This document shows positions 1 to 64,000 of a stretch of 64,000 bases of DNA, piece after piece. The DNA lies in contig NC_135909.1 of the NCBI RefSeq assembly GCF_964194155.1, positions 12,586,001-12,650,000 on the forward strand, read 5' to 3'. The DNA comes from Cetorhinus maximus. Taxonomy: Eukaryota. A program made the translations under genes and the position numbers. The notes below the pieces were generated by a model. That model saw only the letters and a program-made list of their open reading frames with translations. It did not search any database and was not told where the DNA came from. Within the stretch, counting starts at the first letter, position 1. Each line of letters begins with the position of its first letter.

Positions 1-1357
1 GTGCTGGGTATGACTCCAACCAGCAGAGAGCTCCCCATCCCCCGCCTCCGATTCCCATTGTCTCCAGTTTTGCTGGGGATACATAATACCACACAGTCAA
101 ATGCTGCCTTGATGTCAAGGGCAGTCACTCTCACCTCACCTCTGGAGTTCAGTTTGCGTTGGAGGACGAGGGGAAGCAGGTTGTTTTGTTTGCCCACCCA
201 AGCTGAATATTGGGCTTGAGGTGGCGATCAGATTCGGAGAGGAGGGTGACAACCTTTCACTGAGTTTCAAGTTTGCAGATCAGACCTTGGCGGGATTGCT
301 GCTATATTCCCAGGACGTGGTGATCTCATTCTTAGAGCAACACACTTACACTGAGGACAAGTTGCTCCATTTAAAATAAAATGGAGATGTGGGATTTCAG
401 AATCTGTTCAACACTGATTCACTTTTATTCATTTCTGCATCCTAGAGTAACAAAGTGGTTTGTAACTGTAAAAAAAAAATTAAAATTTAGAAGATTCAGT
501 CCAATACCTCCACAGTTTCCACTATTACAGCTTTCAGCATTTTCCGATGCATTCCATCTGGTCCCACTGACCTATCAACATTTAGCATAGCCAGACCTTC
601 TCGTATCTCTTCTTTAACACGAGTTATATGTTAAAGAAGTAATTTGAAAATTGCAGATGGAGGATTTGTGCCCCCTTATTGAAGAGGGTTTAAAGGAGAG
701 GAGCGAAGCATTTGTGCTGAAGAAGTGGGATCAGGGAAAATAAAAGTAACAATAAGTGGAATGAAGGGGGCGGGCTGTTCATGGGCTGACTGGAGAATTT
801 CATTAGGATTTATTCATTGGAGATTGGAAGGTCATTTTTTCCAAATCTTTAAGGAGATTAATGTTGAAGGAAGCCTGTCTTCATCCATAAGGAATCATTA
901 GCTAAGTTTATAAAAATAAGGTGGATAGATAGGATTCAAAGAATTGGAGGGGCAGCACGTTGTAATGTGGAATATAAGATCTTGGTGAGGGCTTGGGAAA
1001 ACCTTTAGGAAGAACACCAAGTCCTTGGAGAGCGTGCAGTGGAACTTTTCTGGAATGGGATCAGTGGTGAGGGATTCCGTATGTGGATGGACTGAAAAAT
1101 ACAAACTGGAGATGCTCTTATCAGAGTGAATGTTAAGGGGAGATTTAGTACAGATATTTAAGATTAGCCGATGTATTTAATATCAGCCCAGGTATTCATT
1201 TCTTATACACATTAAGCAATATTTTTCCCATTGATGGAATGTTTGAAAACCAATGATTAGATAAAAAATAAATGGTGAGGAAATGTTTCACACTGCTCCG
1301 TTCCAAACAATTCCTGACTTGGCATGATAGATTTTTTTTTTTGCTTACTGAAGCCGC
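1..1357 (+). repeat. Segmental duplication, direct copy of ~33943-35290 (L2-like fragment at 1-150, CR1 fragment at ~950-1250)
   Basis: Near-identical colinear sequence from GTGCTGGGTATGACTCCAACCAGCAGAGAG (1 / 33943) to TTACTG(A/G)AGCCGC (~1357 / ~35290). Confidence 0.95.
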
Positions 1358-3511: not shown

Positions 3512-3593
3512 CGACAAAGGTGGGATTCGAACCCACGTGTGCAAAGCACAATGGATTAACAGCCCATCACCTTAACTTCTCGGCCACCTCGTC
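3512..3593 (-). pseudogene. tRNA-Ser(GCT)-type gene with anticodon mutated to GTT; probable pseudogene
   Basis: Reverse complement GACGAGGTGGCCGAGAAGTTAAGGTGATGGGCTGTTAATCCATTGTGCTTTGCACACGTGGGTTCGAATCCCACCTTTGTCG; Ser long variable arm; D-loop TGG changed to AAG. Confidence 0.88.
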
Positions 3594-4100: not shown

Positions 4101-4191
4101 GGGCTCGTACGGGTATTGAACCCGGGACCTCTCGCATATTAATTCACTACAAATACCCAAAGCGAGAATCAGACCCCTAGACCAATGAGCC
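4101..4191 (-). tRNA. tRNA-Pro(TGG) with 19-nt intron (4137-4155); a few stem mismatches, possibly a pseudogene
   Basis: GGCTCATTGGTCTAGGGGTCTGATTCTCGCTTTGGG-[TATTTGTAGTGAATTAATA]-TGCGAGAGGTCCCGGGTTCAATACCCGTACGAGCCC, followed by TTTT ~9 nt downstream. Confidence 0.88.
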
Positions 4192-16299: not shown

Positions 16300-17450
16300 G
16301 TTTTAAACGAACCAATGTGGAAATGAGGATTCATCTTCCCTGGTGAGTGGTGAGGATCTGGAATGCACTGTCTGAGATATGTGGTAGAGGCAAAATAAAA
16401 TCGGGGCTTTCATAGTGGAACTGGACAGCCACCTGAAGATAAAAGTTTACATGGCTATGGAGGCAGGGCTGGGGACTGGGATAGCTGAGTTTCTGCTGAA
16501 GCATCTCAGGAGAGACAGAGGGCCGAATAGTCCCCTTCTCTGTTGTAGCTATTCTATGTGCATGTGTGTGAGGTTCATTCAGGACCACTTTGTCTCTGGA
16601 ACAGGGGTTGAGTGTGGAATTCATTGTTCATCTGTCGGTCTCTGTAGATTCATTCTTTATCACCTTGTCCATGGGACAGGATTTGTTTTCGGGATTAATC
16701 GTGGATCTGTCAGTTTCTGATGATGTGCCTGTGTGTATGAATCATTCTGTATCATTCTGTCCATTGAATACTGTGAGAGTGTGCGATTCAACGTGTATCA
16801 GTCAGTCACTGATGCCAGGCCTGAGTTAATGATTCATTCTGGATCTCTCTGTCTTTTGTTCACAGTTTGAGTGTGGGACTCATTACGTGTCTGTCAGTCC
16901 CTGAGACACTTTGCAAATCTGGATTCATTCAACCCAGAATATACCTCACTGAAACTGGGCCATTTGTTCTAACAGGTAAACTGCCCGACAAGATCCTCCA
17001 CCTAGAATACTTCATGTAACATTCTCTGTTTATCCCTGAAATTCATTCTCCCTCCTTTACTTATCTAGACTTCCCTTAAATGCAGTTTATCTAATCGTCT
17101 CAGTTGTTCCATGCGATAGTTGGCCTGTAACTGCTGCCGATTCAATGGGAATAAATTAATTAATCGTGTTTCCTAAATTGTATTTCATATTTGCATTTCT
17201 ATGTCTGCCCCATCACATCACATCACAAATTCCTCACATTGACCTGTTTCCGCGACACTGACAATGTGAATTTCTACCGCTCTGTTGCGGCCAGTAGATG
17301 GCAGCACATTCTGATACAGTGAAGTTGACAGATCAGAGACAACAGAGGAGAATTGTTCATATTATTCGGGAAGGGACAGTTGTAGAAATACTATGGATGG
17401 AGATGACCTCTTCTTATATGTATTATGTAACAAGCAGTGGTTATCGTCTG
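16300..17450 (+). repeat. Older duplicate of ~45050-46050 (CR1 3' end, ~45-bp repeats and unique sequence)
   Basis: CTGAGACACTTTG, CAGAATA, TTCCTCACATTGACC, GGCCAGTAGATG and GAATTGTTCA are colinear in both. Confidence 0.8.
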
Positions 17451-18820: not shown

Positions 18821-19097
18821 CAGATTCAGCTAATGATCGAGCCGCTTCATGAGAAGATTGGAATTCTCCCAAAGCATTTTATTAAACCGATTGATGCACA
18901 GCTTTTGTTCCAGTTGGACACATCAATAATTTAACGAACGTGATCAGTTAAACAAAATCAGTTAGAAATGAATGCACAAATTAACAAGAGCAGACATTTT
19001 GAGAAAGAGCCCTGCCATGTTAGGAAGGAAAGGCAGAACCTTCAGCTGACGAGTGAGACCGCGGTTTTGAGGGAGTTAAACAGATTTCTACATAAAA

Positions 19098-19187
19098 CGA
19101 CCACGGCAGGACTCGAACCTGCAATCTTCTGATAACCTCACCAAGTACCATCGAAGTCAGACGCCTTATCCATTAGGCCACGCAGTC
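19098..19187 (-). tRNA. tRNA-Arg(TCG) with 17-nt intron (19134-19150), apparently intact
   Basis: GACTGCGTGGCCTAATGGATAAGGCGTCTGACTTCGA-[TGGTACTTGGTGAGGTT]-ATCAGAAGATTGCAGGTTCGAGTCCTGCCGTGGTCG-TTTT; A and B boxes intact, all stems pair. Confidence 0.93.
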
Positions 19188-26588: not shown

Positions 26589-26679
26589 GGGCTCGCCCGG
26601 GATTTGAACCCGGGACCTCTCGCACGATCATTTAACGAAAATCCCCGAAGCGAGGATCATAGCTCTAGAACAACGAGCC
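26589..26679 (-). tRNA. tRNA-Pro(CGG) with 19-nt intron (26625-26643); D-arm damaged, likely a pseudogene
   Basis: GGCTCGTTGTTCTAGAGCTATGATCCTCGCTTCGGG-[GATTTTCGTTAAATGATCG]-TGCGAGAGGTCCCGGGTTCAAATCCCGGGCGAGCCC. Confidence 0.85.
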
Positions 26680-32921: not shown

Positions 32922-33012
32922 CGACTCTGGTGGGATTCGAACCCACAACCTTTAAATCTCTTGTACAACAGCAGCTAGAAGCCCAACACGCTATCCGTTG
33001 CGCCACAGAGCC
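32922..33012 (-). tRNA. tRNA-Arg(TCT) with 18-nt intron (32958-32975); weak anticodon stem
   Basis: GGCTCTGTGGCGCAACGGATAGCGTGTTGGGCTTCTA-[GCTGCTGTTGTACAAGAG]-ATTTAAAGGTTGTGGGTTCGAATCCCACCAGAGTCG; three G-U pairs in the anticodon stem. Confidence 0.9.
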
Positions 33013-33219: not shown

Positions 33220-34095
33220 TATTCACATTGGAAAATAGGGCGGCTGAATTTTTTTGCAGAGAAGGGTGAAGTGATTCATTTTGGTCGGAAGAACACGGGG
33301 AGAAAAGACAAAATAAAGTTTACAATTCCAACGACGGTGCCGGAACAGCGGGAAATGATGTACACCTGCATAAATCATTGATGGAGGCAGTGCAGGTTGA
33401 AAGAATAGTTTATGAATCATATAATACCCTTGGCTTTATGAATGGGAGCATAGATTACAAGAGCAAAGCGGTTGTTTTGAACTTGGAAAAGAGTATTTCG
33501 GCCACACCTGGAGTATTGCGCCCAGTTCCGGGCATCACACTTTAGGAAAGATGTGAATGCATTGGAGAGGAAGCAGTAACGTTTCACGAGAATATTTCGC
33601 GGCGAGGGAACTTAAGTTACCTCGATACATTGTAGCGGTAGGGGTTATTTACCTTGGAGACGAGAAATTTGAGAGGAGATTTCTTAGAGTTCTTTGCAGT
33701 CCCGAGTCTTCTGGACAGAGGGTGGGTGATGATTTGGTCATGGGCTGCTTCAGTATCGGAGGTGTTGAAAATCGTGCCGAACATTGAGCAATCATCAGCG
33801 AACATTCCCAATTCTGCTGGAAGGAAGGTCAATAGTGAAGCAGCTGAAGATGGTTGGGCCTAGGACACCATACCGAGAAACTCCTGCAGTGATGTCGTGG
33901 AACTGGGATGATTGATCTCCACAACCACAATCATCTTTCTTTGTGCTGGGTATGACTCCAACCAGCAGAGAGCTCCCCACGCCCCGCCCCCGATTCCCAT
34001 TGTCTCCAGTTTTGCTGGGGATCAATAATGCCACATAGTCAAATGCAGCCTTGATGTCAAGGGCAGTCACTTTCACCTCACCTCTGGAGTTCAGT
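33220..34095. mobile_element. CR1 fragment (+, ~33220-33690) followed by an L2-like RT fragment (-, ~33715-34095)
   Basis: EKGEVIHFGRKN on +; ALDIKAAFD, GVLGPTIFSCF and GMFADDC on -. Confidence 0.8.
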
Positions 34096-35290
34096 TTGCG
34101 TTGGAGGACGTGGGGAATCAGGTTGTTTTGTTTGCCCACCCAAGCTGAATGTTGGGCTTGAGGTGGCAATGAGATTCGGAGGGGAGGGAGACAACCTTTC
34201 ACTGAGTTTCAAGTTTGCAGATCAGACCTTGGCGGGATTGCTGCTATATTCCCAGGACGTGGTGATCTCATTCTTAGAGTGACACACTTACACTGAGGAT
34301 AAGTTGCTCCATGTAAAATAAAATGGAGATGTGGGATGTCAGAATCTGTTCAACACTGATTCACTTTTATTCACTTCTGCATCCTGGAGTAACAAAGTGA
34401 TTTGTAGCTGTAAAAAAAATAAATAAAATTCAGAAGATTCAGTCCAATACCTCCACAGTTTCCACTATTACAGCCCTCAGCATTTTCAGATGCATTCCAT
34501 CTCCCACTGACTTATCAACATTTAGCACAGCCAGACCTTCTCGTATCTCTTCTTTATCACGAGTTATATGTTAAAGAAGTCAATTGCAAATTGTCGATGG
34601 AGGATTTGTGCCCTCTTATTGAAGAGGATTTAAAGGAGAGGAGCGAAGCATTTGTGCTGAAGAAGTAGGATCAGTGAAAATAAAAGCAACAATAAGTGGA
34701 ATGAAGGGGGCGGGCTGTTCATGGGCTGACTGGAGAATTTCATTAGGATTTATTCATTGGAGATTGGAAGGTCATTTTTCCAAATCTTTAAGGAGATTAT
34801 TGTTGAAGGAAGCTTGTCTTCATCTATAAGGAATCATTAGCTAAGTTTATAAAAATAACGCGGATAGATAGGATTCAAAGAATTGGATGGGTATCACGTT
34901 GTAATGTGGAATATAAGATCTTGGTGAGGGCTTGGAAAAACCTTTAGGAAGAACACCAATCCTTGGAGAGCATGCAGTGGAAATTTTCTGGAATGGGATC
35001 AGTGGTGAGGGATTCAGTATGTGGATGGACTGAAAAATACAAACTGGAGATGCTCTTATCAGAGAGAATGTTAAGGCGAGATTTAGTACAGATATTTAAG
35101 GTTAGCCAATATATTTAGTATCAGCCCAGGTATTCATTTCTTATACACATTAAGCAATATTTTTCCCATTGATGGAATGTTTGAAAACCAATGATTAGAT
35201 AAAAAATAAATCGTGGTAAATGTTTCACACTGCTCCATTCCAAACAGTTCCTGACTTGACGTGATAGATTTTATTTTTACTGGAGCCGCA
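33943..35290 (+). repeat. Segmental duplication, direct copy of 1-1357
   Basis: Near-identical to the start of the window. Confidence 0.95.
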
Positions 35291-45309: not shown

Positions 45310-48300
45310 TGTATTTAAGTGTAGGATTCACTCTGTCTCACTATACCTCTGGCAAAGAATTTGAGTGTCTGATTCATTATGTATCTGTCAGTCTCTAGGG
45401 ATGTGTGTGAGTGTATGATTCACTCTGTGTTGCTGTCTGTGGTGCACTATGAGTGTAAGATTCATTATGTATCTGTCAGTCTCTGAGACACTTTGGAAAT
45501 CGGTATTCATTCTACCCAGAATATATTTCATTGGGCCATCTGGTCTAATTGGTATATTATTCCACAAAGTGCTCCACCCAGAATACTTCATGTACCATTA
45601 TCTGCTGGTCCATGAAATCCATTCTCCCTCCTGTACTACCTAGCTTTCCCTTAAATACAGCTGTGCTCATTGATTTAACTGCTAAAGATGACAACAAGTT
45701 CCACATTCTACAGATTCCATGAGAAATAAGTTATATTGATTTTTTTATTGGATTTAATAGTTACAACTCTATGCCGACCCTGTCAAATCCCATCACTACT
45801 TCCTCACATTGACCGGAATCTGCAACACCAACAGTTCATGTTAATTCCCTCCGCTCTGTTGCAGTTCTCGGCTCTGGCCAGTAGATGTCAGCACACTCTG
45901 CTAGGTCGAAGTTTACAGATCAGAGATGGACACAACAGGCAAGAATTGTTCACATTATATTAAGAGGGGAAGGGGAGGTCTTAGAATTACTAACGGTGGA
46001 TATGACCTTTTTATTCTATTTTGCTATACAAGCAGTAATTATAATGTTGTGCTAAAGCCGTCAACATGTTGTGTGTGAATGTGAGATACATTCTTATCGG
46101 CCCTTCTCTGATCCAACTTGTGAATGTGGGATTCATTCTGTGTCTGTTACTCATAGGTGCTGTGTGAAAGGCACGCTGGACCTGTCAGTCTTGGTTACTG
46201 TATGTGAGTGTGGATACATTCTCCGTGGAACTGTAGGTGAATGTTGCATTCATTCTGCATTTGTCGATATCTGGTACAATATATCTGTGTCATAGTCAGC
46301 CTGTATCTTACATTTCCAGGGACTGCATGAGTGTTGGGTCACGCCTTGAGCCTGACAGTGGAATGGGACGTATGCAACGGATGTGTTCGATCAGTCACTT
46401 TCTGGTATTGAACAGGACCCAATCTGAATTTCTTAATGGTGATGGTGGTTTGTGAGTGTGCATGTGTTTCACTCTTTGCCAGTCAGTGCTACTGTATGTG
46501 AATGTGGAAACCATTCTGAATCTGAATATCTCTTGCATTCCATGGGAGTGTAGTTTCAGTCTGCATTTGTTATTCTCTGGAGGTGGGTATGAGTTTGGCA
46601 GGCATTCTGGTCTGTCACTAGGGGAGTAGGTGAGTGTAGGATTCATATTGCACATTTCATTCTCTGGTACTATAGAGGAATTGGGGCTGATTTTATATCT
46701 GAATGTCCCTGGTGTTGTTGATGAGCATGGCAATCATATATATCTGTCAGGCTCTCCTAATGTGTGAGTCTGGGTTTAATTCAGGGTCTGTCGATGGCAT
46801 TCTATGCCTGTTGTATTGTTACATAAGTTGGGAATCATATATATATATTTCAGTTCCTCATGCTGTTTGTGAGCATGAGATTCATTCTGTATCTGTCAGT
46901 GACTGCTACTGTATGAAATTGTGGGATTCAATTGGTATATTTCATTCACTGGTATTGTATGTGGAATTGGATTTATTCTGTGTCTAAGCATGCATGTGTT
47001 CGTCTGTGTATGTGCATGTAGACTTCCATTTGTTTCTGTCAGCACCTGTGATTCTATTTGGCTCTTAGACCCTTTCTACAATCTCTCAGTGGTATAATTG
47101 GTGTGTCAGAATAATTTTGTATCACTCACACTGAAATAATGTGAGTGAGTGCAGTAAACAGTATGTGTCTCTCAGCATCTGGCACTGAACATGTGTTTGA
47201 TAATTGCTCACTGGTACTCTGGTGAGTAGAGGATTCATTGTGTAACCTTCGGTGTCTGGGACTGTTTGTAAGATTGGGTTAATTGTATATAAATTTCGAG
47301 CACAGCTAATGTGGTCGGCTTAAGCAAACGATATGTGGGAGTTTTGGCCCAACATTAAATCTGTCACTTTGAACACAATTGGGAAAGATAATGAATCCTT
47401 TAATCTGATACTGGATCGGTGTGCACGTATAACTCAAGTTGTACTAATTGATTTGATCTGTGACATTCAGTCTGATTCTGAGTAAGAACTTTGACATGGA
47501 TGTAAAATGGAGCTCAGTCTGGAATTGTTACAGTATTTCCACTTGACACTGTGTGAGGATGGAGGATTAGTATGTGATCTATAGCTGAGTTCATATTCAT
47601 CAAATTAATATTGTATCTTTTAGTTTCATAATAAGGGTGAGTTTCAAACTATAATCTGAACTTCTGTCTCAGGTTATACTAGCTTTCAGGATATCTCAAA
47701 CTGATAATGTACTTGAGATTTGAACTGGTATCTCAGGTATATGTCAGGACACACTATGGGAATTAATGGTGCAATTTATAAGTCCATGATGTGTGTGAAT
47801 ATTGGGCTGGCAATTAACATGAACCTCAGTGTACATCATTAAGGTTAAGCCTGTAAGCTTGTAACTGGAAATGTATCAGTTTTATCAGATGTTTAATTTG
47901 TAGCGAAGGCAGCACGACTGCAGGATTGACTCAGTGAGAATTTAATAGCGGGTGAGAATTTGGACTGGGATTTATGGACACTCCCATCTGCAGGACTGAG
48001 TTTGGGTGACTTGGATACAATGTCTATCTCTCCTGCTCTGTTTGATTCATGGATGGAAAATTACTTTGGAACTATTTATGCTGTCTGAGACTGTGAAACT
48101 GATGACTTGTCAGTGTCTCTGTGCTCTGTCAGTGATAATGTACATACTGTGTGTGAGAAGGAGCTGGTGGGAATCTTCATTCTAATTTGGCTGGAGGAAA
48201 CATCACATTTATTCTGGTTCCTTCAATTATTTGCCTGTTGGTAAAAAGTATATTTTTGAATTCATGTACAGGTGAGGTAGAAGATACTGATTCTATTAGT

Positions 48301-50760
48301 TTAATCTCTCTATTAATAATCATTATGAATGATCTGGGAAGTCTGGGAAGAGTGCCCTCTGCAGTCCCAATGGCCGGGAAGCAGTCTGGGAAGAGCATCC
48401 TCTGCAGTCACCATCGCCAGGAAGCAGTCTGGGAAGAGTGTCCTCTGCAATCACTGTCGTCGAGTGAAAAAACACAATGAGTGACATCACAGGAAGATCA
48501 TAAGTTCATTGGTTGGTGAGTAACTGCTAGTTTGAACTACCTATTCTAAGTTGATTTCAGATCAAAGGTGACTATTGGGGCCCAGGATCGGAGGTCTAAC
48601 ACTTCAGCTTCAACTCAGCAGAGAGAGTGAGTTCCAGTTGATTTAAAAAGTGTATTTTGATTCTCTATTCTAATTTGCTTTCAGGTGAAAGGTAAATAGC
48701 AGAAATATTTTACAGATTGATAAGTTAAAGACCAGTAGGAAATTTAACAACAAATTGAAAAACTAATTAAATAAAATAAAATAGAGATGCAGTGCCAGGC
48801 GATGTGTTGCAGCTGTGTGGTGTGGTTGCTGTTGGACCCCATTGTGGTTCCTCATGACCACATCTGTAGCAAATGTTGGTTGCTCGAGAAACTCCGGCTC
48901 AGAGTTGATGAGCTAAAGTCTGGGCCTCAGAAACTGCGACACATCAGGGAGGGGGAGAGTTACCTGGACGCTCTGTTTCAGGAGACAGTCATACCCCTTA
49001 GATTAACTACCATAAATTCGGCCAGTAGTCAGGGACAGGAGGGTGTGACTATGAGTGAGGCAGGTAGAGGGATCCAGGAAGTAGCACTGCAGGAGCCTCA
49101 ACCCTTGTCCTTAACCAACAGGTTTGAGATTCTTGCTCCCTGTGTGGATGAGAGTGGGGACTGTAGGGAGGATGAGCAAACTGACCATAGCAACATGGCA
49201 CAGGGGGCCATTCAAGTGGGGGGAGAAAAGAGAAATGTAGTTGCAATCGGGGATAGTACAGTTAGGGGAATGATACTGTTCTCTTTGGCCGGGATCGAGA
49301 GTCCCCAGAATTACAAGTGAATGTGGGGCTCATTCTGAAGCTGACAGTATCTGGAAGTGAGTGTGAGTTTGACTTTAGTTCTGCAGTTATCAGTCTTTGA
49401 CTACACGTGTACTTCATTCATTCTGCAAGTATCAGTCTCTGGTCCTGTATCCAAATGTTGATTTTTGTTTGTATCTGTCAGTTGTGGGATTGTGTAGGAA
49501 TGCAGGATGAACTATATGAATATCATTCTCTGATTCTATATCAGTGGGATTCAGTCTGCTTCAATATATCATTTGTGAAATATTAAAAACCAGTGCTTCC
49601 TTTCAGTTACCTGTGAAATGCAATATTGTTGCATTCAATCTGTATGTGTCCATCTCTTGTCTTACACGTGGATGTGTTATTTTTTCTGTATCAGTGGTTC
49701 CCAGGTAATTTACATGAGAATGAGATTAATTCTAACCCAAACATATGTGAGTGTGGCATTCATTCTTTAGCTGTGCATATCTGGAAATAATTGTGTCAGT
49801 GAAGTTGATTTTACTTTTTTCTTCATCTGTTGCTGTCTGTGAATGAGATTTGTCTTATGCCTGTCAGTCGGTGGCACTTTAAATGACTGCTTTTAGTCTA
49901 TGCCTTATTGTCTTTTTCTGTGTGTAGGCCTGTGGATTTTTTTTTCTGCATGTCAGGGTTTGGTCCCCTGTATAAAGTGGGATTAATGCAGTGTATGTCA
50001 GTTTTTGGTGAGTGTGGACATACTTCTGTGTTAGTCATTCTCTCAAACTGAATGTGAGTGTGCATTAATTCAGTTTTCATCAGCATCTGGCAGACCCTGA
50101 GGGTGGGAATCATTCAATATCTGTCAGTTTCTGGTATTGTATGTGAATGTGCTGCTCATTCTGTGTCATTACCTTGTAAAGGGTGTGAGTGAGGGGTTTA
50201 TTTGTACCTGTCACTGTGCAATAACGAATGGGATTATGAACTTCATTCTGTATTTTTCAATCTCTACTCCTCGACGTAAATGTGTTTATTTTTGGCCGTC
50301 AGTCTCAGGTACAATAAGAGACTCTGGAATTTATTATACTTTTGCCAGTCTCTGGTAGGGTATGTGACACTGGGCTACATTCTACATCTTTCAGTCAATG
50401 GCAATGGATATGAAAGTAGCTTTAATTCTGTATTAGTCAGTCCCTGGGTTGAATGTGGTATTTGGAATTTGTTGTTCTTATGTCTGTCTCTAGATTTTCA
50501 TGTGAGTTTGGGGTTCATTCTCGATCTATGTGTCTCTGCCATCGAATGCAACTGTGGGAGTTTTCTGTATTGGTACATAACCTGCATCTCAGGCATGATC
50601 GACAGGCTACATTCAGTAGTTCTGTGCGAGTTGTGTATTGGTATTAAATTTTTATCTGTGAGAACAAATTGGAGTGATAACATATGCATCAATCTCATAC
50701 CTGGTCCATTATTTAGTTCCTGCAGTTTGAAAGAAAATGGAATTCATACTTTAATATTCT
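45310..50760 (+). repeat. Degenerate ~45-bp tandem array (approximate unit TGTGAGTGTGGGATTCATTCTGTATCTGTCAGTCTCTGGTACTG); clearest at 45310-45510, 46070-47300 and 49315-50700
   Basis: GATTCA(T/C)T recurs at 45371, 45417, 45459 and ~45504; GTGAATGTG at 46075 and 46120. Confidence 0.8.
48330..49305 (+). mobile_element. CR1 5' UTR and ORF1 (ORF 48787-49320), 3'-truncated
   Basis: CCSC..W...HICSKC zinc finger, LRLRVDEL coiled coil, LTNRFEIL, VVAIGDSTVRG (SGNH esterase start); short GGGAAGCAGTCTGGGAAGAG repeats upstream. Confidence 0.85.
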
Positions 50761-52763: not shown

Positions 52764-53084
<321 letters not shown>

Positions 53085-53118
53085 ACAGCTCGACCCTTTC
53101 TACCAAACACGCAACAAA

Positions 53119-53134
53119 GGCTCTTTTCAGAGCC
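53119..53134 (+). terminator. Histone 3' stem-loop (H4)
   Basis: GGCTCTTTTCAGAGCC followed by ACCCA and purine-rich HDE AGAGAGAGC. Confidence 0.97.
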
Positions 53135-53211
53135 ACCCACCACCTCACAGAGAGAGCAGAGACCTGGGAACGGGAGCTGGGATGGGCTGTGATCGGGAAT
53201 GTTAGTGTCTG

Positions 53212-53358
53212 AAACAAACAAGATCTCTGAAGAAGAGTCATACAGACTAGAAGGGTTTAACTCTTTTCTCTCCACAGATGCTGTCAGACCTACTGAGGTT
53301 TCCAGCATTTTCTGTTTATATTTCAGACTTCCAGCATCCGCAGTATTTTTCTTTCATT
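53212..53358 (+). mobile_element. Penelope-pLTR-derived short insertion
   Basis: CTGAAGAAGAGTCATACAGACTAGAA...CAGATGCTGTCAGACC...CCAGCATCCGCAGTATTT; flanks TTAGTGTCTGA / TTAGTGCATGA. Confidence 0.75.
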
Positions 53359-54158
53359 TTAGTGCATGATTTGTTCCGGGTTTCGGGGGGATGTACTAAG
53401 TCCCTCAATTTAATCGTTATTTATTATCCTGGATGGCACATTCTCCACTGACGCTGAAAAGCCGCTCCACTACACATTTTCGAAATGTTTTATTTTAGGT
53501 AACACCAGCCGTTCAATGCGTCAGTGGTGTATGAGGTTACAATCAGATCAGCCATGATTTCACTGAATAGGTTCAGGCTCGTGGCTGAGTGGCCTCCTGC
53601 TCCGAAACCCAATGTTCGGACGGATGTTCGTGAAGTTACTGACAGGGTTTGGGAAACAGCAGTTTCAGCTCAGCCACTCGGCGACCTGGAATTCCCGCAG
53701 TCTGAGCGACTGCAGCCGGACTCTAGCTCTGATTGGTCAGCCTCTTCCTAGTCTAATTCTTAACCAATCGCTGAGTCAGGGAGAAGAAATCGAAAATTAT
53801 GATTGATTTACTTTTTTTTGCATTCGAAAAGCCCGCCAATTCCAGTGTTGGAAAATGCAAGATAATCTTAATTTTCAGGCAACAATTTTTAATCTCTCAC
53901 TTTATGATCTGTTATACTGCGCTCCCTGTCACAAGATCTTGGCGCTATTTTCGGAGCTATTTTCAGAATTTGTCATCTCCTTTCAGGAACCGGGATCTGT
54001 CAGGCCGGGAATAGCGGGAGAATCGAGCCGGTCACTTTCTCCGCTCATTATCGTCATGAACAGCCCAGAATGAGGGCAATGGGAAGGGATCTGAAGCCCC
54101 CAGCACCGGTTCCATTTTATTACCCACTCCAGACCTCTAAGGGAGCGGCGATTTTTAG

Positions 54159-54352
54159 GATAAAAACAAAAAACTGCGGATGCTGGAAATCCGAAACAAA
54201 AATAAAAATACCTGGAAGAACTCAGCAAGTCTGGCAGCATCTGCGGAGAGGATCTGTTGAAGAGTCATAGCGACTCGAAATGTTAACTGTGTTCCTCTCC
54301 GCAGATGCTGCCAGAGCTGCTGAGTTTTTCAAGGCATTTTTATTTTTGTTTC
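54159..54352. mobile_element. Foldback Penelope-pLTR-derived element
   Basis: Inverted arms around CTGTTGA-AGAGTC-ATAGC-GACTC-GAAATGTTAAC; imperfect TSD GGCGATTTTTAG / GGTGAATTTTAG. Confidence 0.8.
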
Positions 54353-54672
54353 GGTGAATTTTAGGGTTGGTTGTGCTGTAGGGAGCAATGGACAGTCCGT
54401 CAATTTTTGCCTGCGAAGTCCAGCACTGACTTTCCACAGTTCAAACAACAGACTGGTGTTTCTGTCCAAAAATAAGCAGGTTCATCAGGATGATGCCGGG
54501 TTTAAAAATTGTTGGAAGAGGTTAAATGAACAGGAATTTCATTCGGGTAAGGAAATATTGAATTGCAGTGAAATGGTATTTTTAATTTTTAAAAATTGAG
54601 GAACAAAGTCTTCTGATATCGAGTCGGTCAACGGCTGGAAATAAAGGCCGAATTTTTGAAATGGGCAATTAA

Positions 54673-55278
<606 letters not shown>

Positions 55279-55307
55279 AACCCGGCTTCAGCACCAAGTA
55301 CAACAAA

Positions 55308-55323
55308 GGCTCTTTTAAGAGCC
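55308..55323 (+). terminator. Histone 3' stem-loop (H3)
   Basis: GGCTCTTTTAAGAGCC; HDE AAAGAGCTG at 55340-55348. Confidence 0.97.
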
Positions 55324-56047
55324 ACTAAATCGACAAATGAAAGAGCTGCAATCTCCTGTTGTCCACTCCAGGACTTAGACATCGCGAAGATACAATTTGC
55401 TCCCTTGCATCAGTTTATTTTTCTTGTCTACAAACCTCTTTTGTGGGATTGATAATCACAGACGATGCAGTTGTAAATTGTAGCGCAGATGGTATATTAA
55501 TTTCAGCAGAAAATTGGGACTGCGGTCACCTTAGTGCTGTAGGTCACTTCCAATAAATAGCGGCTGTGAAAATGTATTAAATACTGCGAGCAGACATCAA
55601 TCCCAAGCAAAGGGTGAGCTGCGGGTTACAAGTCAGTGCTCATGATGTCAATAAAGGCAATGCCTCAAGCAACAAGAGGTGATGACTCCGGTGCACAGAC
55701 ATAGAATCAAAGAATTTGCACAGCACGGGAGGCCATTCGGCCCTTGCGCATGTCTGCATCTGCTCTCCAAATGAGTGTTATGACCTAATGCTTCCCCCCA
55801 TCCCCCATTCCTGCACATTTTTTCTATTCAAATAATCATCTAATACCCTCTTGAATGCCTCTATTGAACCTGCCTCCACTACACTTCCAGAGAGTGCATT
55901 CCAGTCCCGAACCACGCGGGTGGAAATGTAATTTCTCTGTTGATGCGAGTTGGTTGTCCTTGCGGATCATTAGAAACGCTTCACCATTACTGAAATTCGG
56001 CACGCAGCAGACAGACAATAGATCACCCTTTCACAGACTCTGTGAGT

Positions 56048-56063
56048 GGCTCTGAAAAGAGCC
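56048..56063 (-). terminator. Histone 3' stem-loop (H2A)
   Basis: Reverse complement GGCTCTTTTCAGAGCC; HDE GAAAGGGTG downstream. Confidence 0.97.
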
Positions 56064-56093
56064 GTTGGCTTATCAGATAAAAGAATGGCCGCT

Positions 56094-56495
<402 letters not shown>

Positions 56496-56543
56496 TCACA
56501 AACACTTTAATAGAGAATGAGGAAATCCTCTCACATTCGCTTC

Positions 56544-56750
56544 TCTTATAGCTTCGGGAGGAATGGTGCTGCGGGCATTGCTTGATTGGTCACTTTGTGC
56601 TGCGTCTCATAATGTTGTTCATATCACCAATCAGATATCTACTGAACTCACCAATCCGGAGACTTGACGGAGTGAGGGCGGAAAAAAACGGCGCCAAATT
56701 TTGAGATTCCAACCGATCTTTTTTTCAAATTTTAAAAGCCCGCCAAATTT
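56544..56750 (-). promoter_or_regulatory. H2A promoter: TATA, CCAAT boxes and E2F-like sites
   Basis: TATAAG (-) at ~56546-56550; ATTGG at 56585, CCAAT at ~56627 and ~56651; GGCGCCAAA at ~56690 and CCCGCCAAA at ~56739. Confidence 0.65.
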
Positions 56751-56799
56751 GTAAAAAAAAAAGCCAAAAAAGAACGGATCGAACATAGTACTAATTGGA

Positions 56800-56897
56800 T
56801 AAAAGCAAAATACAGACGATGCTGGAAATCTGAAACAAAAACAAAAATACCTGGAAAAATTCATCTACGGAGAGGAACACAGTTGACGTTTCGAGTC
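56800..56897 (-). mobile_element. Truncated Penelope-pLTR-derived insertion
   Basis: GATGCTGGAAATCTGAAACAAAAAC...AGTTGACGTTTCGAGTC; TSD CTAATTGGA on both sides. Confidence 0.75.
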
Positions 56898-57738
56898 CTA
56901 ATTGGAAATGGTTATTCAGTATTTAGTATTCGAATGTTACATTCTCTTCATCTCTCTCTCTCTTTCCCTGGATTACAGTTTTTTGTATATTTCAATTTCT
57001 GATTTTCTGTCTGGGTTTATGTGTATCTGAAAACAAGTCGAAAATAACGGCGCAAATTTACGGAATGTATTTTTTTAATTCGACATCGATATATTTATAA
57101 AACAAGAAATACATTTCATATAGAAAATCCAGTTAATAGTGAACACGGTCTGACGACAAAGTTTTAAAAATGTCCGTCCCTAATGGGACTATTTCACATT
57201 TTATCCTAAATTCCGGATTCGCTTTAAGAATCCGGCATCAATTCTAGATAATCTCGATCCGTCATGAAACCTTCTAAGCAGCCGGCTGAAAGTGCCATTT
57301 ACACCGTTCTGCTGATAGACGGGAAATTGTAGATATTTGGGACAGCCAAAATTGAACATACTTGGAGTCAATTTGCCAGCGTCGAGACTGAAGTTTGCTG
57401 CACAACCGGTGTTAATAGGAAATCAGTTGATCGATTATTGAGGCGAAACTTGAACCGAATTGGAACCTGAGGCATTTGCGTTAAATTCGCTCTCTCTCCA
57501 AAACCAGGGACAGGGGTCGAATATGACGCGTCTTAAAACAATCGCTTCGTGAGCGGCAAGTCATTAATTTATGGGACATCATTAACGAAGCCCAACAATT
57601 GAACGAGTTAAATCTACGTTACCGAGAATCTGATTGAAACGTGATCAAAATAATAATTTCAAAATTCGAAATGCTCCATAGTAAAATCATAACTTGTAAC
57701 TAAAGAAATCATATAGCTTTTTCAGAGAGATTGTGGGT

Positions 57739-57754
57739 GGCTCTTAAAAGAGCC
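57739..57754 (-). terminator. Histone 3' stem-loop (H2B copy 1)
   Basis: Reverse complement GGCTCTTTTAAGAGCC followed by ACCCA; HDE GAAAAAGCT. Confidence 0.97.
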
Positions 57755-57793
57755 GTTGTGTTGTGAATGTGTTTTTCAGTCAGTTCGGGGGTC

Positions 57794-58168
57794 TTACTTG
57801 GAGCTGGTGTACTTGGTCACCGCCTTTGTCCCTTCCGACACGGCGTGCTTGGCCAGTTCCCCGGGCAGCAGCAGGCGCACGGCGGTCTGGATTTCCCGGG
57901 AGCTGATGGTGCTTCGCTTGTTGTAATGGGCCAGGCGGGAAGCCTCACCCGCGATGCGCTCGAAAATATCGTTCACGAACGAGTTCATGATGCTCATGGC
58001 CTTGGAGGAGATGCCGGTGTCGGGGTGAACCTGCTTCATCACTTTGTAGATGTAGATGGCGTAACTCTCCTTCCTCGACTTTCGCCGCTTCTTGCCGCCC
58101 TTTGCTACCGGTTTCTTTAAGGCTTTCTTGCCTCCCTTCTTGGGAGCTGGTTTCTTCTCATCAACCAT
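57794..58168 (-). CDS. H2B: Histone H2B copy 1 (124 aa)
   Basis: [19 protein letters not shown]...[23 protein letters not shown]...KYTSSK; the ATG lies downstream of the TATA/octamer-like promoter. Confidence 0.98.
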
Positions 58169-58211
58169 CGTCACTTTCAGACACAGAATAAAACGAACCA
58201 CTTCCGAGCGC

Positions 58212-58370
58212 CGATTAAATAGACAGTCTGACAGACCAATGCTAATGAGGAATGGGGAAACGATGATTCTGATTGGACATTTAATAAAATACAACAGCCA
58301 CTTATTTTGTACTTTTCTCTGTTTGCATTTTTAAAGTGGCCAATCAAATTTCGACTTCTCGACCAATCAT
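58212..58370 (-). promoter_or_regulatory. H2B promoter: TATTTAA, octamer variant ATTAGCAT, CCAAT boxes
   Basis: TTAAATAG at ~58216; ATGCTAATGAGG at ~58239-58250; the same motifs occur at 63171-63207 before copy 2. Confidence 0.75.
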
Positions 58371-58659
58371 TAGCCCTTTTACGACAATCAGGAAATATAT
58401 TCTATCAGGATTCTCTCCAGTCCCAGTTTCTCAGTTTGTGAAGATACACCGGGAATTGTTGTCTGGCTGTCGGTGCGAGGGGCCTTTCTCCACAGAGGGA
58501 CTGCACGGAAATGCGGGATTCCTCCCGGAACTCTTGTAACTTGTGCGACTTACTCACTGGGATATTGTGTATGTGTGTGTGAGTGGTAGGGGGTTGGAGT
58601 ATCGGGAGTGAAATTTGTTCTTGAGGCTGTGGTCCGCTGTAACAAACACTCACACAGTC

Positions 58660-58820
58660 ATAAAAACAAAAAAACTACTGCGGATGCTGGAAATCCAAAA
58701 CAAAAACAGAATTACCTGCAAAAACTCAGCAGGTCTGGCAGCATCGGCGGAGAAGAAAAGAGTTGACGTTTCGAGTCCTCATGACCCTTCAACAGAACAG
58801 AGTCATGACTCTTCAACTCA
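58660..58820 (-). mobile_element. Penelope-pLTR-derived insertion with hammerhead-like motif
   Basis: Minus strand GTT-CTGTTGA-AGGGTC-ATGAG-GACTC-GAAACGTC-AAC. Confidence 0.8.
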
Positions 58821-58949
58821 CGCACACACATTATTAAAGAATGGGAGTTTCAGAATGATTCCCAAATTTAGATTCAGGACCATTGAACTATATTAAAATA
58901 ATCCCATAATCAAACCATGTATGATATCCTGACAGTTATAGAAAGAATC

Positions 58950-59610
58950 TTCCATCCACAGCCACACGTGTTACCAGTGACTGACAAATACAGCCAGAGT
59001 CCTACACGTAAACTCAGCACCAGAGGCTGAGTAATACAGGATTAATTACACATATACACAGAAATAAAGACAAAAACATCCCCACACAGACACTCTACCA
59101 GAGACTAAGAGATAGAAAATGAATTTCCAGTACCACTGAACAATTCAGGTTGAGTCCCAAAAGCTCAATCTGTACCAGAGCCTGATAGATACAGAAAGAA
59201 TGCCTTACAAACAGGCCAAAGCTTCACAGTTACATAGTCAGACATCAATTACCAAAGACTGGCAGTTACTTAAGGAGAAAACACTCACAGTATCACGAAG
59301 TGGTAAATACGGAGTCAATTCCACAGTCACACATCACAAAGTCCAACAGATATGGAATGAATCTCTCACATGTACAGTGTCAAAGACTGACATGCAAATT
59401 TCACATTCAAATGTCATACTAATAGAATGGAAAATTGAGAATGAATCACATACTCACATTCAGGTTCATGAATCACAGATAAAGTTTGAATCACACATTC
59501 ACATCGCTTGCCAGGTGCCAACAGACATACAATTGATCCCAGCTTTATATATAGTACCAGAGACTGACTGGTGCAGAATACACCTGAATCTCACATCGAG
59601 CAGAATAGAT
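58950..59610 (-). repeat. Degenerate ~45-bp array, reverse orientation
   Basis: Recurrent GTACCAGAGACTGACA...ATACAGAATGAATC, the reverse complement of the 45-50 kb unit. Confidence 0.7.
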
Positions 59611-59629
59611 GGACTGATGCATTAAACCT

Positions 59630-60740
59630 TCAGAAATAGGAGCTGGACTTGGCTATTTGGCCATTCGACCTCCTCCATCATTCATTCAGACAGATGTTCT
59701 ACCTCAACTCCACTTTGCCGCACTCTCCTTATATCCCTAGTATCCAAAATCAATTGACCTCTGTCTGGAACATACTCAATGGCTGAGCTTCCAAATCTCT
59801 CTGGGGTGGAGAATTCCAAAGAATCTCAACACTTTCAGTGAAGACATTTCTCCTCATATCATTCCAAAATGGCCAATGCTGTGATCTGAGATGGTGACCA
59901 CATGTTGTAGATTCCGGAGCCAGGAGAACCATTTTCTTAGCATCTACCCTGACAAGCCGCTTAAGAGTTTTATTTGTTTCATTTAGATAACCTGTATTCT
60001 TCTAAAATCCAGGGAATATAGACCTAGTCTCCTCAATCTCCCCTCATAAGAAATCCACTTGTCACAGAAACCAAGCTAGTGAACAATTATTGCCCTCCCT
60101 CTAAAGCAACTATGCCCTTCCTTATGTAAGGAGACCAAACTGCACACAGTACTCCAGGTGTAGCCTTAATTGTGCCCTGGATAAATGGAAGATTTTTCAC
60201 TCCTGTAATTCAAACCTTTGGAACAAATGTGAACATAACACTTCCCTTCCTATCTGCTTGCTGTACCTGCAGTTTTACTTTCTATAATTCATGTACAAGG
60301 ACACCCAGCTCCCTCTGAGTGCAAACGTGTTCCAGTCTCACATTCAAACATGTTCTTTTTCCCCCCTTCAAAACTGGGCCCACCCACACTACCATATTGT
60401 ATTCTATCTGCCATGTTCTTGACAACTCAGACAACCTGTCTAAATGCCTTAGCAGGTTTTTTGTGTCCTCACAGATTAATTTTCCACCAATTTTGTATCA
60501 TCAACAAACTTGAATATGTTCCATTCAGTACCCAACTAAATCATCAATATATGTTGTAAGTAACTGATGGCTGTGTTTTATCAAGAGTAAGTTAGAGCCT
60601 GCCAATCCGAAAATTCCTGTTTATTCCGACACTGTTTTCTGTCCATTTACTAATCCTTGATCCATGCTAATGTTTGATCCCCAATCACATGTTCTAATTT
60701 TGTGTAATAAACTCCTGTGTGGGACCTTTGCAAATTGCTG
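59630..60740 (-). mobile_element. CR1 3' fragment
   Basis: CCAAACTGCACACAGTACTCCAGGTG, GTACAAGGACACCCAG, CTCCTGTGTGGGACCTT. Confidence 0.8.
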
Positions 60741-61979
60741 AGCAAAATTACACCCCCCTCAGATTGCAAGGCCCTGTGTTACCAAAACAAAAGGAGAACC
60801 TTAAATACACATTAAATGACAAAGAGATCAGACAAACAGTACCCACTTGTAAGATCTTGCATGAATCCCAATATTGTACCCATACTACAGACTGAACTAT
60901 GCATTACATACCACTCCCTAAACCTCAGAGTGTCTACAAGCTAGATGAAGCTGATCATACACATCGGGTAATGTATCAGATTGTGTGATATACAGACATT
61001 CAGGGTTGTGTTGACAGAGATGGAATTTTAATCCAAAACTCTGACATAATAACTGATTAATACCCACAGCTATTAACTCCAGTTGAAACACATTTTATAT
61101 TAAACATAAGTCAGGCTTACACTCATGCTACATAGATTAGAATCTCGCAATTGTTACAGCAGAGGGAGGCCACTCAGCCCATCGTATCTGTGCCAGCTCT
61201 CTGCAAGAGCAGCTCAGCTGCTCACATATTCTTCCCCGCAGGCCTGTTTAATTTTCCTTTTGTTCTTTTTCTATTTTTCTTTGTGCAGTGAGCTCAACTT
61301 ATCTATTCACATGCACACAATTGATTCTATTTATGGACAGCGGTCATATCCATTCGACATCCATCCTTTTCCGAGGTTAATAGGCCCAGCTATTCTAAGC
61401 CAGTGCTGATTACTGATGAGGTTTCAACTGCAACATGGATAACTCTATATTGGGATTCATGTATCTGCCATCCCCTTCTCCATTACCCTTTACACTCCCT
61501 GATAGCATGTTTAGTTGCCCTGAGCTGTGTCTGGTACCTATCCCAAAATTCTCCTACTGCAGTATAACTGCTTTCATTGGATTTGCCACAGCAAATGAGG
61601 AAGGATCTACCTTGGTTTGTTTGGTTTTAAACACCACTTTTCAAATTCACTCTCCCAGCGAGAAGCCTGATCTACTAAGGATGTAAATCAGAAATTCAGA
61701 CTTGTATTCTACCTGATTTCCAGGCATTGAAATTAATTTCCAGCCAGATTCCTGTTTTGCACGACCCAGTGGGGAATCTCCTCACTCACAACACAAGGTG
61801 AGATAATTACAGGTCTAAAGAGCAGTTGACAAGTCTGACTTTTTAAACATTTATGTGTATAAAGATTGCTAAATATTTTAAAAAAAGATTGTCAATCTGA
61901 TATGAAAATGTGAACTTAACGCTGAAGTGGAGAAATTTTCAGGTAGACCCAATTCTGCAAACACCTAGAGAGTTAGTAA

Positions 61980-62830
61980 TCACTGGTCCCAGAGATGTAG
62001 AGATACAGAATGAATCTGACATTCACACAGTACCACAGACCAAGAAACACAGAAAAATCTTACAGCCAAAAACTGATAGGGACAAAATGAATCCTTCATT
62101 TCTGCAAAGCATCAGGCACTGAGTTAGAAAATGGCTTCAACGCTTACACAGGGTACCAGAGTCCATCAGAAACAAAATGATTTGCAAGCTTCCATAAAGT
62201 ACCACTGATTGAGAGAGAATTGATCCCACTCATACCAATACTATCCATTGAGGCAAATTCTACATTGTCAGTCTTTGGTGCCGAATGTGACAGTGGGGTT
62301 ACTTCTGTCAAAAATTGCAAGAGATGGACCTATTGAGAATAAATTACACACTTTGAATCAGTACCAGAGACTGACCGATACAGACTGAATTTCACACTCC
62401 CATTCAGCAAAGGATGTTGACAGGTACAGAGTTAATCTCACATTCACACACAGTATCAGATATTGACAGTGAATGAGAAGTTCAGACTCAGAGATAGTAC
62501 CACAGGCTGAAAGACATAGAATCAATACAACTCTGACCTACAATGACAGGGACTGACAAATAAAGAATCTCATTCACATACAGTTACAGAGATTGACATG
62601 TACAGAATAAATCCAATACTTTTCGTGGCCGAGAGAAACACATGCTGATTTAATTCCGCACTGTCTTATAGTCCCAAGGAGCCAATAATTTCACTTACAT
62701 GCACCAATAACGGACAGATGCACAATGAGCCTCAGGATATCAAGTGAATCCAACACTGAGACATGGTCCCATCAAGTCACAGACACAGAAGAAATCCAGC
62801 CCTCGCACACTGTACCACGGCCTTCCAAAC
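61980..62830 (-). repeat. Degenerate ~45-bp array, reverse orientation
   Basis: GATACAGAATGAATCTGACATTCACACAGTACCA at ~62003; CAGTACCAGAGACTGACCGATACAGA at ~62359. Confidence 0.75.
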
Positions 62831-63259
62831 AGTGAAGGAACCCCACTCTCACACACAGAATCAGGGAGTGAATAAATCCCACAATCACAGACTTTACCAA
62901 AGCCTCACAATTCCTGAGGGAACCCCACATTACCGTACAGTCCCTCGCACCGACTGCCAGGCGACATTTCCTGGTGTATCTTTACACACTGAGAAATTCC
63001 GCCTGGAGAGGGTCTTTGTAAAAAGTATTTCCTGATTGCAGTAAGGAGGCCTATGATTGGTGGAGAAAGCTAAATATGATTGGTCGATTTCTCTATCCAA
63101 TCAAATAAATCACAAATTAAGAACTTGTTTTCTTTTAAAAATGTCCAATAAGAATTGTTGTTTTCTCATTCCTCATTAGCATATATCTGTCAGACTGTCT
63201 ATTTAATGAGCGGACGGAAGGGGTTTGGTTTATTTCTGTGGCTGAAATTGAGATTGAAG

Positions 63260-63637
63260 ATGGTTGAAGAGAAGAAGAAACCAGTTGCTAAGAAGGGCGC
63301 CAAGAAAGCGGTGAATAAGCCGTCAGGAAAGGGCGGCAAGAAGCGGCGAAAGTCGAGGAAGGAGAGTTACGCCATCTACATCTACAAAGTGATGAAGCAG
63401 GTTCATCCCGACACCGGCATCTCCTCTAAGGCCATGAGCATCATGAACTCGTTCGTGAACGATATTTTCGAGCGCATCGCGGGTGAGGCTTCCCGCCTGG
63501 CCCATTACAACAAGCGCAGCACCATCAGCTCCCGGGAGATCCAGACCGCCGTGCGCCTGCTGCTGCCCGGGGAACTGGCCAAGCACGCCGTGTCGGAAGG
63601 GACAAAGGCGGTGACCAAGTACACCAGCTCCAAGTAA
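63260..63637 (+). CDS. H2B: Histone H2B copy 2 (125 aa)
   Basis: [37 protein letters not shown]...KYTSSK; core protein identical to copy 1. Confidence 0.98.
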
Positions 63638-63676
63638 AACCCCCGAACGGACTGAAAAACACATTCACAACACAAA

Positions 63677-63692
63677 GGCTCTTTTAAGAGCC
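63677..63692 (+). terminator. Histone 3' stem-loop (H2B copy 2)
   Basis: GGCTCTTTTAAGAGCC; HDE AAGGAGCTG at ~63709-63717. Confidence 0.97.
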
Positions 63693-64000
63693 ACTCACAA
63701 TCTCTACTAAGGAGCTGCACCCGACATCTTCCTACTGGATTATTATAATATAAAATAACTTCCACTGCTGTTAGTGTCTCCTGTCCTGTAACCCAGACAC
63801 TAACCCTTTAATTAGCTCATCGGCCTTCGCTTTGTGCTGAAAGCGGTTATTCTGTTATCACAGCCTTTAAGTGACCTCATTAGCTGCTGTTTTCAACTTT
63901 AATTGTCCCTTCCCCCAATTCCTGAAACAGTTACTGAGTCATTTTATTAATTTTCCGCAGGGTAACAGCCGGAGTGGGATTATTACAGAGCGGAATAAGA

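Follow-up and report, generated by a model that had tools for sequence, protein, structure and literature searches.

The basking shark genome carries a family of at least 51 tRNA-Arg(TCG) genes interrupted by an intron, and we consider it probable that part of this family is transcribed by Pol III and spliced by TSEN and RTCB to a normal CGA-reading tRNA. The gene through which the family was recognized lies on the minus strand of the window, by which we mean the whole 64,000-nt stretch of DNA that was analysed. Read from the sequence, it spans 19098..19187 (-), is complete, and contains a 17-nt insert between positions 37 and 38. Its parts are as follows.

19151..19187, minus strand: 5' exon of tRNA-Arg(TCG), 37 nt, positions 1-37 (A box, D arm, anticodon TCG, A37)
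19134..19150, minus strand: intron at 37/38, 17 nt; the G at -3 pairs with C32, -3 to -6 pair with 32-35, and a 3-nt bulge is left
19098..19133, minus strand: 3' exon of tRNA-Arg(TCG), 36 nt, positions 38-73 (variable loop, T arm with B box, discriminator)
19094..19097, minus strand: T4 run resembling a Pol III terminator, abutting the discriminator

The gene matches Rfam RF00005 with 58.2 bits (E 5.4e-10, model positions 1-71), the highest score among four RF00005 tRNA matches within the window. ARAGORN reports tRNA-Arg(tcg) with a 17-nt intron when introns are allowed and gives the gene no name when they are not. The initial annotation, made from the letters of the stretch, had described a complete cloverleaf with intact A and B boxes, TTTT after the discriminator and 17 extra nucleotides exactly at 37/38; the sequence and both programs agree with the cloverleaf, and the sequence and the ARAGORN intron call agree with the placement of the insert. 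Its further claim that the 3' end of the intron can pair with C32-G36 is also borne out, with intron positions -3 to -7 standing opposite 32-36. All four stems are fully paired, the acceptor stem including the adjacent wobbles U4-G69 and G5-U68, and the anticodon loop reads C32 U33 U34 C35 G36 A37. Removal of the intron leaves a 73-nt tRNA that is identical at 69 of 73 positions to the intronless Arg(TCG) of the same genome and differs at positions 2, 4, 37 and 68. The C4-to-U change is the source of the two adjacent wobbles, and this CpG-type change at position 4 recurs in 9 of the 51 copies. Whether the window copy is itself active is close to an even bet.

The number of related genes was determined genome-wide with an exact pattern that leaves a free gap of 8-30 nt. 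In the 3.99-Gb genome this pattern found 51 intron-bearing Arg(TCG) matches, and the reversed control found none, so that the count is far above chance. Fifty of the 51 matches lie between 8.97 and 21.5 Mb of the contig that contains the window (C32), within a tRNA/histone array of about 13 Mb, and the remaining one is unplaced. The intronless Arg(TCG) junction has a single exact match genome-wide, on contig C27. That gene, the sole intronless Arg(TCG) gene found, is intact, and no flank homology was found between it and the array. With one mismatch allowed, intronless Arg(TCG) accounts for 1 of 32 matches, the remainder being mostly Arg-ACG genes, all of them intronless, with a few chance-like matches; copies whose 18-mer is altered at two sites or more would escape this search, the way one Pro gene was missed. 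Arg-CCG is likewise intronless, in 4 of 4 genes. A separate, dense array of intronless Arg-ACG genes, spaced about 2-4 kb apart, was observed on unplaced contig C1365 (L042-L061).

For this genome, the count that the initial annotation had proposed gives 51 intron-bearing genes to one intronless gene, and the objection that the intron is a singleton insertion fails because the family is multi-copy. The suggestion that part of CGA decoding may hinge on splicing was over-stated: an intact intronless Arg(TCG) gene is present, and CGA decoding therefore need not depend on splicing.

Fifty-one copies were compared in detail, comprising the 30 best matches of one genome search and 21 from the exact-pattern list. 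Stems and invariant bases are intact in 44 of them, and in 50 a T4 run lies within 12 nt of the gene. Once spliced, these copies would depart from the intronless gene at 0-5 positions, four of them at none. Base 37 is A in 16 copies and G in 35. The reading of A37 in place of G is thus true of the window copy, as originally stated, but describes a subfamily trait only, and A37 cannot serve as a diagnostic mark of the spliced product in general, since it marks just that subfamily of 16. A tRNA-derived SINE was rejected as the source of the copies on account of their clustering on one contig (50 of 51), their homologous flanks and the T4 run straight after the gene.

The anticodon-intron pair C32:G(-3) is present in all 51 compared copies, the intron having been left free by the search. 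Among 100,000 shuffled introns, the single 32:-3 pair formed in 41% and all five pairs with 32-36 in 1.9%, and the 15 distinct 17-nt introns retain 68 of 75 pairs in this register. Intron columns -6 to -3 have a pi of 0.01 versus 0.21 in the other 13, a difference that is not significant with so few columns (Fisher p 0.10). When the cloverleaf stems are enforced, a 32-35 helix with a 3-nt bulge is predicted for the window type with P 0.97 (0.47 unconstrained), and of the 16 distinct haplotypes 12 are predicted to form the same structure with P>=0.7. In the other four (helix P<=0.18), which include the most diverged intact copy, L081, an alternative fold wins. The 32:-3 pair co-varies across intron-bearing tRNA families: U32 faces A or G at -3 in all 15 distinct Pro-TGG/AGG genes, and G occupies -3 in 10 of 11 Arg-TCT introns and 7 of 9 Tyr introns. 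The accessible text of PMC6614914 describes two features of Drosophila pre-tRNAs as invariant, a proximal C-G pair and a bulge of 3 nt, and the predicted Arg(TCG) helix and bulge match this geometry. Because introns are present in all 31 Tyr-GTA and all 23 Arg-TCT pattern matches genome-wide, the tRNA-splicing machinery must exist in this genome. Among these 23 Arg-TCT matches none is intronless, although a divergent gene could escape the pattern; a brain-specific intronless Arg-TCT exists in human and mouse (PMC10485636, accessible part).

Introns at the canonical site are also carried by tRNA-Pro genes with the anticodons CGG, AGG and TGG, of which genome patterns detected at least 117 intron-bearing copies versus 8 intronless genes. 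The strict pattern gave 26 CGG, 18 AGG and 7 TGG intron-bearing matches genome-wide, and a looser pattern gave 73 TGG matches. These copies are located on contigs C32, C4, C7 and C22 and on unplaced contigs. Seven of the 8 intronless Pro genes were found by pattern and one more separately. An intronless Pro-TGG isodecoder at L099:2367-2439, in which the 31-39 pair is swapped by a compensatory change, escaped the pattern search. Two intron-bearing Pro genes lie in the window.

4101..4191, minus strand: tRNA-Pro(TGG) whose canonical site holds a 19-nt insert; U32:A(-3) kept, one acceptor-stem and one T-stem mismatch
26589..26679, minus strand: tRNA-Pro(CGG) with an insert of about 19 nt at the canonical site; A box altered, from the Pro-CGG family without the 32:-3 pair

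Both the gene at 4101..4191 and the gene at 26589..26679 are probably decayed. Elsewhere, acceptor, anticodon and T stems are intact in 7 of the 15 distinct Pro-TGG/AGG genes, and contig C22 carries an intact, dispersed Pro-AGG gene (L085) that has a 17-nt intron of its own and a T6 terminator. None of six distinct Pro-CGG genes has the 32:-3 pair, and the diversity of Pro-CGG copies looks neutral (gene pi 0.081 vs flank 0.070). The finding of Pro introns is as strong as that of the Arg(TCG) introns. The initial annotation's proposal of a spliceable intron in a further isotype is partly supported, with Arg(TCG) proving multi-copy, but it had overlooked all three Pro anticodons, including the two genes in the same window. 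Intron-bearing copies with a Pro body and the anticodon TGC were also seen at L163:7116-7205, L064 and L067; the L163 copy has intact-looking stems and no 32:-3 pair, and these copies are likely pseudogenes.

The setting of these genes was surveyed over about 1.06 Mb of array, consisting of the window together with L102-L141 and L162-L221. The genes that recur along this length are Arg-TCT, Arg-TCG, Pro, Tyr, Leu-CAG, Ser-GCT, Phe, Gly-TCC, iMet, Trp and Thr-AGT, and many of the copies are decayed. Two further features of the window belong to this context.

32922..33012, minus strand: tRNA-Arg(TCT), a standard family, with an 18-nt intron; a somewhat degenerate copy
52773..63717, no single strand: histone gene group with H4, H3, H2A and two H2B genes and four 3' stem-loops

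The names of the H3, H4 and H2B genes are putative; the H2A protein groups with 14 others among those listed, of which 12 come from sharks (bamboo, epaulette and cat sharks) and two from mammals, pointing to a shark as the source of the DNA. ARAGORN and BLAST calls in the 1.06 Mb revealed no further intron-bearing isotypes, and a generic A-box pattern for new intron isotypes returned only one Tyr gene and one chance join; that pattern is insensitive, because it recovered 1 of 31 Tyr genes.

Several other elements were observed in the array and the window. Starting at 8.83 Mb of contig C32, Arg(TCG)-derived copies with the anticodon TCA and a 16-nt intron have been amplified many times (L063-L077). 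An opal-suppressor reading of these TCA copies was rejected: acceptor stem and B box are broken in 15 of 15 compared copies and gene diversity is neutral, for which reasons they are decayed Arg(TCG) pseudogenes. In annotations of shark genomes, such copies could lead to too high a count of 'selenocysteine/suppressor' tRNAs. Copies with an Arg(TCG) body, an intron and the anticodon TTT occur at L078-L080 and L173, with stems largely intact (five among the first 100 matches listed); if expressed they could possibly act as mis-decoding tRNAs, and it is more likely that they are decayed. A gene with a Ser(GCT) body and the anticodon GTT at 3512-3593(-) of the window, called Asn by ARAGORN, resembles CpG-type decay. 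Window positions 1-1277 and 33943-35215 are segmental duplicates, 92-95% identical at a spacing of about 34 kb, and a degenerate 46-bp tandem repeat occupies 16563-16928 and 45316-50158.

Selection on the Arg(TCG) exons was assessed over two ranges of divergence. Between the most diverged intact pair, L011 and L081, 44 of 46 non-ascertained exon sites are kept, as compared with 145 of 198 flank sites (p=6e-4). Among the 50 copies with a 17-nt intron, exon sites outside the search pattern have a pi of 0.060 versus 0.091 in the 3' flank (p=0.55). The exon versus 3' flank comparison is likewise not significant within the GAC clade (p=0.79), and exons versus far 5' flank gave p=0.28 in the GGC clade; the corresponding GAC-clade value for the far 5' flank (p 8e-16) was set aside because that flank includes non-homologous breakpoints. 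Purifying selection on the exons is suggested over deep splits and is not significant among recent copies. Shared exon changes at positions 4, 66 and 73 are C-to-T or G-to-A at CpG, as expected of methylated, silent copies.

The mutation profile around the genes is distinctive. In the two Arg(TCG) clades, the 20 nt upstream are hypervariable (15/20 vs 11/60 sites, p=7e-6; 17/20 vs 12/60, p=3e-7), exon pi is 0.02-0.045, and the intron and positions +5 to +20 are elevated. Upstream hypervariability is common to the Leu-CAG, Gly-TCC, iMet, Phe, Arg-TCT, Pro-AGG and Pro-TGG genes of the array. The signal is weak or non-significant at the decayed TCA copies (p=0.095), Pro-CGG (p=0.21) and Ser-GCT (p=0.51). 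The last of these served as a control, and because it does not carry the signature the upstream test is not clean; the Trp control, with one copy, was left out. A profile of this kind is reportedly left by transcription-associated mutagenesis where tRNA genes are active. Upstream hypervariability combined with conserved exons likely reflects transcription plus selection on the Arg(TCG) family, and from the sequence evidence as a whole we regard the intron-bearing family as probably functional.

We propose that Pol III transcribes Arg(TCG) copies from their internal A and B boxes to the T4 run. TSEN would bind the mature domain of the pre-tRNA-Arg(UCG) and make ruler-type cuts after position 37 and in the 3-nt bulge, and the RTCB ligase would join the exons. 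The product would be a normal Arg-charged tRNA-Arg(UCG) that reads CGA and adds to the output of the one intronless gene; CGA decoding would depend on splicing only insofar as the array out-expresses that gene. From the observed anatomy, copy numbers, 32:-3 pair and mutation profile, together with the predicted helix, we infer transcription, cleavage, ligation and charging; the cleavage and ligation steps draw on established TSEN biology as given in the accessible text of PMC10485636. Long ago the intron may have entered, or been retained by, a single Arg(TCG) gene, to be multiplied afterwards by segmental duplication with birth-and-death, and many copies would be silent because they spread in this manner. 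The 17-nt intron may possibly form a circle. TricRNA circles have been demonstrated for longer fly and worm introns, and small introns were mostly size-excluded from libraries (PMC4536317, accessible part).

The principal challenge to this proposal is that the intron-bearing copies are silent through methylation, or are left unspliced, and have been amplified only as part of the histone/tRNA array, with the intronless gene supplying all Arg(UCG). That gene is intact and could do so, the array is rich in dead tRNA copies, and amplification within it extended to decayed relatives whose anticodons are TCA and TTT; recent Arg(TCG) copies combine CpG-type decay with a lack of significant exon constraint, and in the neutral-looking Pro-CGG genes the 32:-3 pair is missing from 6 of 6. 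We nevertheless judge it unlikely that the family consists of such passengers, in view of the conservation of exons over deep splits (p=6e-4), the invariance of the 32:-3 pair (51/51), the occurrence of upstream hypermutation alongside low exon diversity, and the intact state of the dispersed Pro-AGG gene on another chromosome, with its own intron and T6 terminator.

The origin of the introns is a separate matter. A tree of 30 intron-plus-3'-flank rows depicts an old birth-and-death family and leaves the ancestral base 37 ambiguous. The Arg(TCG) and Pro introns could be ancestral to jawed vertebrates or chordates and lost in bony vertebrates, or could already be common outside mammals and present in GtRNAdb, a view compatible with transcription and splicing of the array genes. 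The introns are indeed old here, as judged from several unrelated-looking Pro introns on four chromosomes, Arg classes of 16 and 17 nt, and long branches; moreover, the one match in a metagenome scan for Arg(TCG) intron genes, the non-vertebrate-type L062, has a 25-nt intron and A37 and shows that such an arrangement also occurs in other eukaryotes. This genome, however, also has Arg(TCG) and Pro genes that share these exons and are intronless, the human set is limited to four families, and the literature searched yielded no vertebrate with Arg(TCG) or Pro introns; we place the ancestral or already-common view on the unlikely side. Descent from an intron-bearing Arg(TCT) gene, by anticodon switch or by conversion of the loop and intron, would explain A37: Arg-TCT has both A37 and an intron and, within the units of the array, is separated from Arg-TCG by a few kb, and A37 also occurs in the most diverged Arg(TCG) copy and the decayed TCA copies. 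Yet the body is of Arg(TCG) type, with its 69/73 identity to the intronless gene, and not of Arg-TCT type, which rules out a plain anticodon switch, and the Arg-TCG introns are no closer to 11 Arg-TCT introns than shuffles are (p=0.84); we therefore consider this derivation very improbable. Transfer of the intron from Tyr or Pro genes was rejected in the same way as transfer from Arg-TCT, similarity again not exceeding that of shuffles (Tyr p=0.56; Pro p=0.8-1.0). A more far-reaching scenario, tentative and rather unlikely, is that sharks independently gained the Arg(UCG) and Pro introns, as the first such gains in vertebrates, and that array genes dominate Arg(UCG) and Pro supply in fast-dividing cells such as oocytes and embryos while a few dispersed intronless genes serve other tissues. 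If this were true, TSEN/RTCB activity could act as a switch on the decoding of CGA and CCN, and the identical-exon gene pairs with and without intron would be a natural test of the role of tRNA introns.

The standard intron-bearing tRNA families of vertebrates are Tyr(GTA) and Ile(TAT) as well as Leu(CAA) and Arg(TCT), which also make up the human set of four. The Arg(TCG) intron resembles canonical TSEN-spliced vertebrate introns in its position at 37/38, in a length within the usual 15-30 nt, and in its anticodon-intron pair, predicted helix and predicted 3-nt bulge, and the coexistence of intron-bearing and intronless genes parallels human Arg-UCU (four plus one). It departs from the standard families in isotype (Arg-TCG and Pro-CGG/AGG/TGG), in the presence of tens of Arg(TCG) copies in one array, and in intron sequences unrelated to those of the standard families in the same genome. 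To our knowledge, no intron-dependent modification has been described for the Arg(TCG) and Pro isotypes in vertebrates.

The accessible text of the Squalomix preprint (10.1101/2025.06.08.657570), which gives no isotypes, reports that sharks and rays possess tRNA/histone clusters and an abundance of tRNA loci containing introns. In contrast to that account, the intron-bearing genes here can be assigned and are mostly non-standard, with 51 Arg-TCG and at least 117 Pro versus 23 Arg-TCT and 31 Tyr genes, in a tally covering these four groups, with Arg-TCT and Tyr as its standard families. The figure and supplements of the preprint, and GtRNAdb, may already list shark Arg(TCG) and Pro introns. The literature searched, which included zebrafish tRNA papers and had subscription papers mostly outside its coverage, yielded no description of an intron in Arg(TCG) or Pro genes of any vertebrate. 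Lineage-specific gain of tRNA introns is documented in yeasts, as in tRNA-Ala(UGC) of Lachancea thermotolerans (PMC4090602, accessible part), which is likewise an intron in an isodecoder with intronless relatives and an unchanged mature body. The shark case differs from these gains in its vertebrate host and in the mixed intron state with identical exons in one genome; mixed states are said in the same source usually to reflect different gene origins.

We conclude that a standard intron, probably served by standard machinery, is present in isotypes undescribed for vertebrates in the literature searched. Default gene finders mislabel these genes, ARAGORN returning '???', Tyr, Thr, Ala, Ser or Ile. 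The means by which eukaryotic tRNA genes gain or retain introns, and the reasons for it, are an open question (PMC4090602, PMC10485636, PMC12530127). The vertebrate set of intron-bearing tRNAs has been treated as fixed, and further isotypes allow gain and loss to be dated on a well-sampled tree. Where one genome holds both an intron-bearing and an intronless gene for the same mature sequence, intron effects on expression and anticodon modification can be tested directly. If the Arg(TCG) and Pro introns are spliced, as is likely, the intron-bearing set of vertebrates would widen from four families to at least six.
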